Origin: Bacteroidetes bacterium HGW-Bacteroidetes-3
GTDB taxonomy: Bacteria; Bacteroidota; Bacteroidia; Flavobacteriales; Flavobacteriaceae
NCBI GenBank assembly: GCA_002842505.1
Contig: PHDE01000001.1
Span: forward strand, 3,683 to 67,682
Direction of reading: 5' to 3'
DNA: 64,000 nt
The translations under genes were made by a program, and so were the position numbers. This document shows positions 43,999 through 52,603 of this stretch, in pieces (positions within the stretch are counted from its first letter, which is position 1; each line of letters opens with the position of its first letter). Below the pieces are notes generated by a model. That model was not told the origin of the DNA. It searched no databases and saw only the letters and a program-made list of their open reading frames with translations.

Positions 43999-44222
43999 AA
44001 GCTATTTTTATTCAAATATAGCTGTAATATTTTTGAATTAAATTCTTATTGATGAAATTTCTTTTTTGATAAAATGCATTGACTTATCTATTGCGATATT
44101 TTTGGCTTTTTTTTGAAGAAAATTAAATAAGCGCTTTAAATTTATTAAAATCCAGTTCTTCATAATGTAAATCCCAAGAAAAGAATATCATAAAATTCAG
44201 ATTATTTTATCTAGAGCTAAAT

Positions 44223-44753
44223 TTATTTCAGCAAAGGACATCCGCAATTCCTGCAAACAATTTCGTCAATATCATGCATAAAACTACAAGCATTACAAAA
44301 AATGATATCATCAACTGTTTTATCATATTTTTCATAAGTTTTTAATTTGCCATGATAACGTACTTTTTCACCTATTTTAAAATAATCATAAAGAGTAGCA
44401 TCATTTTCAGTTCTTATTTCATGTCTTTTATGCTTTTGGTCTTCAAAATAAACAATAAACTCAGTCACCTTTTCCTTTTTTACTATTTCCTTTTCAACAA
44501 CTTCACCATCCCAAGTAGCTTCTTTCTTTACTGAAAATGCTGAATAGACACCAATTAAAAAAAACATCCCACCAATTCCCAAACCTATATGCAATGCCTC
44601 TGGATTGTCCATTTCATCACTCATTTCACCATAAAGATAAAATCCTGCTATTGCAATTATAGCCAAGGCAAAAGCAAATTGAAATCTGTAATCTTTTGTA
44701 TTTTTCAAATAAGTATCAAATGCTGGGTCGTGAATTTTTAAAGAATAGGCCAT
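44223..44753 (-). CDS. Two-TM membrane protein with C-terminal zinc ribbon
   Basis: Two hydrophobic helices; FCNAC...CRNCGCPL. Confidence 0.8.
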   Translation of the reverse strand: MAYSLKIHDPAFDTYLKNTKDYRFQFAFALAIIAIAGFYLYGEMSDEMDNPEALHIGLGIGGMFFLIGVYSAFSVKKEATWDGEVVEKEIVKKEKVTEFIVYFEDQKHKRHEIRTENDATLYDYFKIGEKVRYHGKLKTYEKYDKTVDDIIFCNACSFMHDIDEIVCRNCGCPLLK

Positions 44754-44797
44754 TGTTTAAAGGTTTAAAATATTAAAAAGGTAAAAATTAGCAGAAA

Positions 44798-45664
44798 CTA
44801 ACCTTTCAATTCATTTATAACATGTTTTAAATCTAGTTCTTGTGGTGCCGGAATATTCAATTCTTCAGTATTGGTGAAAGTTCTATCAGTATAATAATAC
44901 TGAATTTGTAATCCATAAAATGGTTCATTAATTACACTAGATTTTTTAATTCCTGAAAGTGGAAAATCCCAATTGTGAAAAAATCCGTTGATATAAGCAA
45001 ACTTTTTCCCTATCAATACATTTCCATCCCCATTTAAATTTTTGTTTTTATAATATATGGGCATTCCAAAAGCAAATAATCCTATAAACCCAATCAACAC
45101 CAACATTACTAAAAACATAACTCCTTTTCCTTCTTCTAGAATAAGTATAAAAAACCCAAAAATAACAACAATCAATATCGTTGTAATCCAAAAAATTCCT
45201 TTGTTTTTAGCTTTTTCATTTTCAAAAAGATAGTTTACATACGTTGATTTATTATTTTCATTCAACTTCCAAGATGCCAAAACATTTTCTCCAGTTATCA
45301 AAGTTTGCAATTTTTTTGCGCGACTTTTGAAGATAAAAGCTACAATAATAGCCGACAGAAACACAAACATCCCAATTAATGCTATAGCCCAAAAACCAGT
45401 TAAGGGGTTATTATTATAAAATGGTAAAACAATAATTATCAATGAAATAAACGCTACTAATAAAGATATATTTACCGTGCTTGATTGATTGTTTTTCAAA
45501 CTAATTGTTTGGTTTATAGTTTCAAAATTAATTGACTTTGATGGTATAAATTCATCAACTATTCCCACAGTTTTTGATTCAATATTTAGAATCTTAATGC
45601 CACATGATTTGCAAAATACTTCTTCAGAAGTTACTGGTTGACCACAATTTGAACAATACTTCAT
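44798..45664 (-). CDS. N-terminal zinc-ribbon membrane protein (4 TM)
   Basis: MKYCSNCG...FCKSCG; two TM hairpins. Confidence 0.82.
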   Translation of the reverse strand: MKYCSNCGQPVTSEEVFCKSCGIKILNIESKTVGIVDEFIPSKSINFETINQTISLKNNQSSTVNISLLVAFISLIIIVLPFYNNNPLTGFWAIALIGMFVFLSAIIVAFIFKSRAKKLQTLITGENVLASWKLNENNKSTYVNYLFENEKAKNKGIFWITTILIVVIFGFFILILEEGKGVMFLVMLVLIGFIGLFAFGMPIYYKNKNLNGDGNVLIGKKFAYINGFFHNWDFPLSGIKKSSVINEPFYGLQIQYYYTDRTFTNTEELNIPAPQELDLKHVINELKG

Positions 45665-45671
45665 AATTTTA

Positions 45672-50658: not shown

Positions 50659-50793
50659 AACAACATAATTAAAACCATCAATAATCTATTGAAAATTAAT
50701 TTTTTAATTAGTAGTAAAGTAAATTTACAACATGTTTAAATAAATTCAAAAGAAAATTATATACTTTTGATATGCTTTTAATTACCTAAAATT

Positions 50794-51207
50794 ATGGGAT
50801 TAAAGAATCGTTCAAATTTTGGGAAATGGCTTATTGCAATTGTTGGTGCAATGTTTCTTATTTATAGTGTTTTTTTGTTGGCTTTAACACTTTTTGGCAC
50901 AGATGTTAATGCAAAAGTCACCAGTTATCGCCAAGAATACGGCGAAAGAAATGAAACCATAAGAAATCAATATACTTATTTATTTGGTTATGAATTTGAA
51001 GCAAACGGGAAAAAATATTCAGGAACCGGACAAAAAATTGGGAATTCGGTATTTCTAAAACACAATGACACTATGTTTATGAAAGTAAGATATTTGCCTT
51101 CTTACCCTTTTCTGAACTCGGCTTATGACGGAAACAAGACTCACCTTAATCTCTTAATTTCCTTAATAGTTGGAATTGGTTTGCTCTTAACCTCAAGAAA
51201 AATGTAA
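50794..51207 (+). CDS. DUF3592-like membrane protein
   Basis: TM - small beta domain (YxFxYEF..NGKKYSG...VRYLP) - TM. Confidence 0.7.
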   Translation: MGLKNRSNFGKWLIAIVGAMFLIYSVFLLALTLFGTDVNAKVTSYRQEYGERNETIRNQYTYLFGYEFEANGKKYSGTGQKIGNSVFLKHNDTMFMKVRYLPSYPFLNSAYDGNKTHLNLLISLIVGIGLLLTSRKM

Positions 51208-51250
51208 CTTAATTTCAAAAAAAATAGATACCTTTTTCTTCTGAAGAAAA

Positions 51251-52603
51251 TTAAATCAGCGCTTTAAAATGATTAAAATTCAACCCGCCATAATCGCCTG
51301 AACTCATTAGCAACACAACGGTATTTTCAAAATTTTGGTTGAATAAAAACTCCCTGAATTCGGCCGAATTTGTGTAAACAATCAAATCATCTCTTTCAAA
51401 AGCGTCTTTAATTTGCTGCTCGGTAATTTTTTCGAGTCTTTTAATTTCAACGGCGTGCGGAGAATAAAAAACTACAGCTTTGTCGGCGCTGTTTAACGCA
51501 CCTTTATATTCCTTTAAAAATTCAGCATTTAAACTACTGTAGGTATGCAATTCCAAACAAGCCAATAATTTTTTATTGGCATACTGGTTTTTTACGGCAT
51601 TTGTAGTCGCTTCAACCTTGCTTGGCGAATGCGCAAAATCTTTAAAAACAACAGTCGATCCACTTTCTGCAATTTTTTCCAATCGCTTGCTGGCGCCTTT
51701 AAAACTTGAAATGGCTTCATAAAAATCGGCTTCATCAACGCCTATATGCTGGCAAATCCACTTTGCGCCTGCCAAATTTTGCAGATTGTGCTTTCCGAAA
51801 ATTTCTAAAGGCATTTCACCCAAAGAAGTTTCTATAAATGTGATGCCGTTTTCAATTCGGTAATTTGGCGTACTGTATGGATATTTTTGAATGGGATTTG
51901 TAGCTTGTTCCACTACCCTTTTTACTTCGGCATCTTCTTCATTATAAACCATAATTCCGCCGTTGGTGATTGAATTCACAAAAATTGAAAACTGCTTCAC
52001 ATAATTTTCATAAGTTGGAAAAACATTGATATGGTCCCAGGCAATGCCGCTTAAAAGCGCTATATTGGGTTTGTATAAATGAAATTTCGGACGCATATCT
52101 ATAGGGCTCGACAAATATTCATCGCCTTCAAGCACCATAAATTCATTTTCAGCAGTTAAATGCACCATAGTTTCAAAACCCTCCAACTGCGCACCAACCA
52201 TATAATCTACTTCAATTCCGTGGTAATTGAGCACGTGCAAAATCATTGATGTAATGGTGGTTTTTCCGTGTGAACCACCAATAACCACCCGAGTTTTATT
52301 TTTAGATTGTTCAAATAAAAATTCAGGATATGAATAAATTTTAAGCCCTAATTCCTTTGCTCTCAATAACTCTGGATTATCTGCTTTCGCGTGCATTCCA
52401 AGAATTACGGCATCCAAATTTGAAGTGATTTTTTCTTCAAACCAGCCTTCTTCTTTTGGCAACAGACCTTTGGCTAACAATCTAGATTTTGATGGTTCAA
52501 AAATAGCATCATCGCTACCAGTTATGGCGTCTCCTTTTTGATGTAATGCCAATGCCAAATTGTGCATAGCACTACCGCCAATTGCAATAAAATGAATGTT
52601 CAT
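51251..52603 (-). CDS. mpl: Murein peptide ligase (Mpl/MurC-like)
   Basis: HFIAIGGSAM, GSHGKTT, EGDEY, DHINVF, DFAHSP, LLMSSG. Confidence 0.88.
   Translation of the reverse strand: MNIHFIAIGGSAMHNLALALHQKGDAITGSDDAIFEPSKSRLLAKGLLPKEEGWFEEKITSNLDAVILGMHAKADNPELLRAKELGLKIYSYPEFLFEQSKNKTRVVIGGSHGKTTITSMILHVLNYHGIEVDYMVGAQLEGFETMVHLTAENEFMVLEGDEYLSSPIDMRPKFHLYKPNIALLSGIAWDHINVFPTYENYVKQFSIFVNSITNGGIMVYNEEDAEVKRVVEQATNPIQKYPYSTPNYRIENGITFIETSLGEMPLEIFGKHNLQNLAGAKWICQHIGVDEADFYEAISSFKGASKRLEKIAESGSTVVFKDFAHSPSKVEATTNAVKNQYANKKLLACLELHTYSSLNAEFLKEYKGALNSADKAVVFYSPHAVEIKRLEKITEQQIKDAFERDDLIVYTNSAEFREFLFNQNFENTVVLLMSSGDYGGLNFNHFKALI

Follow-up and report, generated by a model that had tools for sequence, protein, structure and literature searches.

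A recombinase-less six-gene cassette between two copies of the mpl/trkH junction in Lutibacter

In a 64-kb window (the whole stretch of DNA that was analysed), whose host was treated as a groundwater Lutibacter, a cassette of six genes, c1 to c6, lies beside an intact mpl-like ligase gene (mpl below). We found that this cassette sits between two copies of a 70-100-nt junction spanning the converging stop codons of mpl and trkH, with each gene's end kept complete. The borders read mpl tail plus trkH remnant, then c6 to c1, then mpl tail plus trkH. An earlier note on this DNA had described an islet inserted into the 3' end of mpl; the displaced, decaying mpl tail and the empty sites of relatives agree with that description, but the end of trkH was duplicated as well.

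Positions 44114-44166 and 51242-51294 are direct repeats, in register and identical at 44 of 53 positions, as had been reported. The next-best match to the 53-mer in the window, with both strands considered, was 30/53, and the top score in 100 second-order Markov simulations of 64 kb was 34/53. The stop codons of the two copies (44123-44125 and 51251-51253) are 7128 nt apart. On the minus strand the left copy translates as HYEELDFNKFKALI followed by a stop, and the intact mpl-like gene terminates in DYGGLNFNHFKALI and a stop; the residue with which the left copy begins, read earlier as N (NYEEL...), is His, encoded by CAT. The homology extends past the stop codon with two 1-nt indels (about 44104-44171 versus 51229-51299), and each copy comprises the last ~16 codons of the mpl-like gene, the stop and ~20 nt of the trkH 3' end. 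The duplicated mpl tail of the earlier note is real, but the repeat is longer and takes in the ends of both converging genes. Of the 22 nt that follow the intact mpl stop, 19 are shared with the 3' end of trkH at a relative's locus, L090, a score equalled by none of 2000 shuffles, and in L090 the counterpart stretch matches that locus's own trkH end at 23 of 26. In the window ~19 nt of trkH end adjoin the displaced tail; in L001 and L090 the tail continues directly into full-length trkH. Direct repeats at both borders that include the end of the target gene are a feature of recombinase-mediated islands.

A scan of one genome per species gave 80 loci with a 77-91% identical ligase, from Lutibacter, then Tenacibaculum, Kordia, Flavicella and others, and the window proteins together with TrkH and TrkA were mapped onto these loci for gene order. 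In ~50 related genomes the backbone order is mpl-> <-trkH <-trkA radC-> DUF7033-> HAD->, and it was seen across Lutibacter, Tenacibaculum, Kordia and Flavicella. The gene natively downstream of mpl is therefore trkH, which lies on the opposite strand; the earlier expectation that mpl would be followed by radC in relatives was borne out in L005 only. At 12 Lutibacter loci mpl and trkH have overlapping stop codons and a spacing of 3-6 nt, an arrangement that is, from gene order, the empty site; at least ten close relatives have it clean, and an unoccupied site of this kind in relatives is what an integrative island leads one to expect. The six-gene cassette was found at the mpl/trkH junction in L001, L012, L037, L088, L089 and L090, and partial or variant cassettes at the same junction in L016, L020, L026 and L035. 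In the more distantly related L088, L037 and L016 the junctions are tight: on the trkH side no more than 9-14 nt that look like the mpl end are left, as would be expected had the same duplicated structure decayed. No repeats above chance flank the cassette in L081, L082, L088 and L037, and at L037-type loci the c6 C-terminus looks similar to the trkH tail, which the conserved K-M-E codons of c6 partly explain.

The window has neither trkH nor trkA. Between the displaced tail and radC lie 45 unplaced nucleotides, a remnant of the trkA start and the ordinary trkA-radC spacer. In L005, which has no cassette, 115 nt separate mpl from radC; they include a scar homologous to the window's and a spacer of the same derived variant, indicating that the window and L005 share one deletion of trkH and trkA (trkHA). 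It is because trkH-trkA were deleted in the window lineage that the displaced tail now adjoins radC. When metagenome contigs were scanned for the exact pattern of the scar, the L005 contig was the only match. Frameshifts were seen in trkH and trkA of L089 (11186-14034) and in trkH of L090 (9689-11184), for which metagenome assembly errors are possible; either Trk is dispensable in the groundwater clade or these frameshifts are such errors.

The displaced tails of the window and L090 have the same border and the same G-to-A decay, with ATTATGAAGAAC instead of ATTA[C/T]GGCGGAT, and are identical at 39 of 44 positions. These common features place the insertion before the window/L090 split. Within the window's clade the identity at four-fold sites was 49-58% for mpl and 54-58% for c5, and by this match c5 has diverged in step with the backbone. 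The comparison indicates that the cassette has been inherited vertically since the window's clade arose. Since the junction is shared with two other species and the synonymous divergence of cargo and backbone is equal, the insertion is old and now fixed, in agreement with the 'old' islet of the earlier note. Four independent assemblies of the window's species carry the island at 100% identity. The G+C content at third codon positions, a profile that had been proposed for checking, is lower in the island genes than in the rest of the window (median 0.22 vs 0.32, Mann-Whitney p = 0.0003). Recent foreign arrival of the cargo was ruled out, the same cassette being present at the site in at least ten other Lutibacter loci with a c5 divergence equal to that of mpl.

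Several lines of comparison indicate, indirectly, that some lineages have NEVERTHELESS gained the cassette, lost it or exchanged it. In trees of mpl, radC and DUF7033 the four loci of the clade that carry the cassette are interspersed with ten that are empty, and the nearest backbone relatives of L001 are empty (L006, 94% mpl DNA identity; L011, 90%). At four-fold sites c4, c3 and c2 of the window are 70-81% identical to those of L001, versus 58% for mpl. The allele classes of c5 conflict with the mpl tree: c5 of L088 groups with the window clade, though its mpl is sister to that of L037, and c5 of L012 shows the reverse pattern by grouping with that of L037. The phylogeny of the cassette is thus incongruent with that of its flanks, as is typical of a cassette in a hotspot. 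In addition, all four combinations of cassette presence and trkHA deletion occur (L001/L090, the window, L005 and the L004-type loci), which requires at least one gain or precise loss via the repeats, unless the scar itself was transferred by way of the short homology of the tails. Clean empty relatives, the conflict between cargo and mpl trees and that between presence and trkHA deletion together argue that gain or precise loss through the repeats has happened. The earlier note would have given up the insertion if relatives kept all six genes in place with a vertical phylogeny; descent is vertical within the clade, but there are empty relatives, and the c5 and mpl trees disagree.

The displaced tail of L001 is identical to its attached copy at 46 of 47 positions and carries the signature of its own subclade. 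It is the same as the native tail of the empty relative L011, and its left edge bears ~13 unmatched nucleotides, a pattern suggestive of conversion or of a second insertion. The similarity of the two repeats cannot serve as a clock, because in L001 the displaced copy is nearly identical to the attached one.

The displaced tail and c1 spacer (window 44123-44222) are ~85-89% conserved between species, versus 56-58% at four-fold sites (binomial p about 1e-5). A structured RNA in this segment was considered and rejected (z = -0.05, no covariation).

The same junction also receives other genes. At six other Lutibacter loci (L014, L021, L024, L028, L059 and L032) it holds a three-gene module of DUF2249, COX1-like and iron-sulphur (FeS)-assembly (DUF59) genes, and in Tenacibaculum it holds 5-9 kb of other genes (NTP_transf_5, a protein sorted by the type IX secretion system, tail-collar proteins). 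Neither an integrase nor repeats were found with the DUF2249 module or the Tenacibaculum set. This outcome of the survey of other cargo that the earlier note had called for places the same core genes around variable content across species, as in hotspots. A conserved palindrome of the type TATGACAnnTGTCATA precedes the DUF2249 module in four of the six loci (L014, L021, L028, L032) and stands ahead of the c5 cassette in L026 and L035; it is possibly an operator. Unique, partly GC-rich and hairpin-forming stretches of ~200 nt occur exactly at the mpl/trkH junction in L003 (2737-2935) and in the place of the displaced tail in L089 (10987-11200), and neither matched any other locus compared.

No recombinase was found among the six cargo genes, whose proteins match zinc-ribbon families only, and no recombinase family among the genes called within 10 kb either side of c5. 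The islet had been described as recombinase-less, which holds for this whole interval; an integrative island would be expected to have a recombinase gene in or beside it. No integrase-carrying element was found using the same attachment (att) site. A scan of IMG/VR gave no relatives of c5, which argues that the cassette is not phage-borne. The element, as far as its genes tell, has no recombinase of its own and is not self-mobile.

We hold, with modest confidence, that the structure probably arose by a Campbell-type insertion at the junction, followed by vertical inheritance, repeat-mediated loss or re-gain and a later trkHA deletion. The six-gene cassette would have entered at the overlapping stops of the convergent mpl-like and trkH genes, and ~70-100 nt of the junction, comprising the last ~16 mpl codons and 20 nt or more of the end of trkH, would have been duplicated in the process. 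The left junction copy would supply the end of mpl and the right one that of trkH. Such an A-B'-[cassette]-A'-B layout would be the product of a single Campbell-type crossover between a circle, with the cassette and a junction copy, and the chromosomal junction, brought about by host homologous recombination or by a recombinase acting in trans. The insertion precedes the radiation of the window's Lutibacter clade, with vertical descent since then, as the shared junction indicates. The flanking repeats and flanking core genes have let precise loss, re-gain or conversion occur in some lineages, as the evidence given above shows indirectly. In the window lineage trkH-trkA then decayed and were deleted, and the deletion, evident from the scar, brought the displaced tail to radC.

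Several results weigh against such an insertion. In four metagenomes, the assembled contigs, though at only 6-16x depth, included none skipping the island, no empty junction and no circle. No integrase was linked to the site in ~90 loci. Maribellus, Proteiniphilum and other Flavobacteriaceae carry the cassette elsewhere in the genome, with no repeats at its borders, and a dedicated att site is therefore unlikely; other cargo stands at the mpl/trkH site itself without repeats. The repeats had been called the 'classic' signature of integration, which is not established, given other cargo at this site and the cassette elsewhere, both without repeats or integrase. For a circle to carry the junction in native order, an element so structured must already have existed, which leaves the very first duplication unexplained. 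Moreover, integration is not the sole route to a displaced tail: in a Polaribacter metagenome-assembled genome (MAG; L078:11270-14100) a ~58-nt mpl tail is copied 1.6 kb downstream together with a gene for a 361-aa NTP_transf_5-like nucleotidyltransferase, and the second copy of the nucleotidyltransferase is split (178 aa + 112 aa), as in a decaying plain tandem duplication.

A possible, though clearly less probable, route is one-sided homology-facilitated illegitimate recombination with linear DNA from a cassette-bearing relative, in which the homologous exchange falls inside mpl and the illegitimate join ~45-58 nt before the recipient's stop, leaving the tail over. Donors for such an event exist, since many Lutibacter lineages carry the cassette at the same locus; the incongruence of allele classes with the flanks fits it, and so does the tail of L001, with its extra unmatched left edge and its identity to the native tail of L011. 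However, the trkH remnant on the mpl side is left unaccounted for unless the donor already had it, which moves the question one step back. More doubtful still is that nothing was inserted in this lineage, the cassette being ancestral in the genus, the repeat a local tandem duplication of the junction and the empty sites secondary deletions. The cassette is indeed present in every major Lutibacter subclade sampled, its divergence roughly tracks that of mpl, and L078 provides a known tandem duplication of the mpl tail; we nevertheless regard this as unlikely, because the repeat copies flank the cassette exactly instead of lying side by side, because the empty sites restore the stop overlap seen in distant Lutibacter (L015, L022, L025), and because the cassette is found at unrelated loci in other orders with c5 at 53-60% identity, no more distant than some Lutibacter copies. 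A chance match in AT-rich DNA, which the low G+C content around the repeats (28-30%) might favour and which the earlier note had named as a ground for refutation, is refuted for practical purposes by a repeat score far above the simulated maximum, by similarity in frame with the stop codon in the same place, and by the recurrence of the structure in L001 and L090.

Integration hotspots, reportedly treated by Oliveira, Touchon and Rocha in 2017, are said to be variable regions between conserved core genes. The mpl/trkH site resembles them in that the same two core genes flank different modules by species, no mobility genes are present and alleles are exchanged through the flanks. Hotspots normally have no target duplication, whereas the islet carries a 70-100-nt duplicated junction. 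Insertion at a gene end is also known from SCCmec in rlmH, with ccr-less pseudo-SCC elements that have no recombinase of their own. The dusA-specific islands integrate into the end of a protein-coding gene and restore that gene (PMC4482086). Like the dusA and SCC islands, the islet hits the end of a housekeeping gene, supplies a replacement end and leaves a displaced fragment with direct repeats at the borders. Unlike them, it has unrelated cargo at its site without repeats, and the dedicated recombinase and short conserved core site of those families were not found for it. As to mobility, the closest documented parallel is the microcin H47 island of E. coli, which is small, has extensive imperfect direct repeats and no integrase or excisionase, and needs host functions for mobility; its excision and integration have been demonstrated experimentally, and the function of its cargo is known (PMC3191183; PMC5426353). 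The islet is likewise small, with imperfect flanking repeats and no integrase of its own, but its repeats are the duplicated ends of two converging genes and no excision was seen.

Taken as a whole, the islet is an ordinary kind of genome variation with cargo whose only family matches are zinc ribbons. It provides a natural example of a recombinase-less cassette that fills the overlap of two converging housekeeping genes and breaks neither, with repeats that permit later precise loss or re-gain, and it shows that the content of the mpl/trkH junction varies among Lutibacter and related Flavobacteriaceae. A practical lesson is that such insertions are not datable by the similarity of their repeats, one relative showing conversion of the displaced copy. 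The main value of the finding lies in the unexplained cargo, a six-gene membrane module in several Bacteroidota orders that is explained by no current protein-family, defence-system or structure library.

All six cargo proteins have predicted transmembrane (TM)-like segments. Searches of the six against Pfam, NCBIfam and PADLOC found zinc ribbons only, and nothing for c5 and c6; the sole match to the defence-system models of PADLOC-DB 2.0 was confined to the zinc ribbon (PD-T4-6, E = 0.002) and was not significant. The most conserved cargo gene is c1, with 73-85% protein identity across Lutibacter, and c6 is kept beside c5 in Lutibacter, Maribellus and Proteiniphilum. In a collection of 5.8 billion proteins, c5 had 48 relatives at E <= 1e-5, none with an assigned name; those at 53-60% identity include proteins of Maribellus, of a Proteiniphilum-labelled MAG and of Saprospiraceae. 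Elsewhere the arrangement of c6, c5 and zinc-ribbon genes lies between a PALP enzyme and a GH2 gene, or beside genes for a type I restriction-modification system, a helicase and an ATPase. Two Flavobacteriaceae (L092:8462-19645, L093:8420-19662) have a double cassette between a dihydrolipoyl-dehydrogenase-like gene and argS, in the order c6, c5, two small genes, a second c5-like gene (1279 aa) and three small genes. Neither recombinases nor flanking repeats were found at the loci of the cassette outside Lutibacter. Two Lutibacter loci have extra genes between c4 and c3: in L012 (7916-10197) these encode a 201-aa zinc-ribbon protein and a 565-aa protein without a Pfam match, and in L088 (14371-17457) a 1028-aa protein with a double zinc ribbon.

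In L020 and in P0046 the C-terminal quarter of c5 is swapped for unrelated sequence. The database label of P0046, PF03497 (edema-factor-type cyclase), was dropped, as our own hmmscan gave nothing even at E <= 10. The C-terminal 322 aa of c5 form a conserved domain, modelled with a predicted local distance difference test (pLDDT) of 86 and a predicted template-modelling score (pTM) of 0.78, and contain many invariant charged residues, including R991-x6-H998-D999 and G1026-x9-D1036-x-D1038. Foldseek searches of the PDB with two AlphaFold models of the c5 C-terminus gave best E values of 0.5-0.75, and with the 322-aa model from the window no neighbour better than E = 0.75. Several of the weak matches are HEPN or MNT proteins, a lead and not an assignment; the invariant R-x6-H and G-x9-D-x-D motifs weakly recall the sites of HEPN and nucleotidyltransferase proteins. 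Matches of c5 to alpha-latrotoxin (single-sequence PDB search, E >= 0.04) and to CusC (E = 0.14) and RF1 (E >= 0.2) in a PDB profile search were taken as chance. The cargo may, at low confidence, be an envelope-associated conflict or signalling system around c5, with a C-terminal domain that differs between alleles. It is doubtful, though conceivable, that the cassette represents a new membrane-embedded conflict or signalling system of Bacteroidota, with an exchangeable C-terminal enzymatic domain on its 1250-aa core protein and a recombinase-less spread at gene-end junctions.

Table 1. Features of the islet and its borders, in window coordinates.
Feature	Position	Strand	Remarks
mpl-like MurC/Mpl-family ligase, 450 aa, intact	51251..52603	-	three Mur ligase Pfam domains; 77-91% identical protein in 80 relatives
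Attached, functional repeat copy: stop and last ~16 codons of mpl-like gene	51251..51299	-	
trkH 3'-end remnant just 3' of intact mpl stop, left edge of islet	51229..51250		19/22 vs L090 trkH tail
c6, 137 aa, two TM-like segments, divergent from c5	50794..51207	+	no family match
c5, 1256 aa, N-terminal signal/anchor, one TM segment at residues 198-216	46888..50658	-	
c4, 204 aa, N-terminal zinc ribbon and 4 TM-like segments	46231..46845	-	
c3, 184 aa, N-terminal zinc ribbon and 1 TM segment	45672..46226	-	missing from L090
c2, 288 aa, N-terminal zinc ribbon and 4 TM segments	44798..45664	-	
c1, 176 aa, 2 TM segments and C-terminal CxxC...CxxC motif	44223..44753	-	
Non-coding spacer, c1 to displaced tail	44172..44222		conserved in L090, L001
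Displaced, non-functional mpl-like tail (HYEELDFNKFKALI, stop)	44123..44171	-	
trkH 3'-end remnant joined to displaced tail	44104..44122		
trkH-trkA deletion scar	43999..44103		homologous to L005 mpl-radC spacer and relatives' trkA-radC spacer
Scar part: 45 nt, AT-rich	44059-44103		no match assigned
Scar part: trkA start-codon remnant ATTTCAT	44052-44058		
Scar part: trkA-radC intergenic region	43999-44051		
radC-family gene, first backbone gene past islet	43300..43998	-	

The mpl-like protein scored 237 bits against the NCBIfam model murC (cut-off 335) and 183 bits against the mpl model TIGR01081 (cut-off 389), both below the cut-off, and its gene is not in a cell-division cluster. It is, from its domains, a MurC/Mpl-family ligase whose exact gene name is not secured; the name 'mpl' used earlier fits the family, with its three Mur domains, but fails at the cut-offs of both models.

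In L086, which belongs to the window's species, 10 nt (4787-4796) stand in place of 59 nt of c6 (window 50902-50960), and c6 is called there with only 71 aa, owing perhaps to a gap in the assembly, perhaps to a true disruption. Between DUF7033 and radC, at window 43215-43304 (also at 36324-36636), there is a tandem heptamer array, (CTTCGGT)n, and after it a GC-rich hairpin. The array is a meeting point of many different metagenome contigs, with a depth of 80-213x versus 7-16x nearby, and for these reasons it is taken as an interspersed repeat of this genome.

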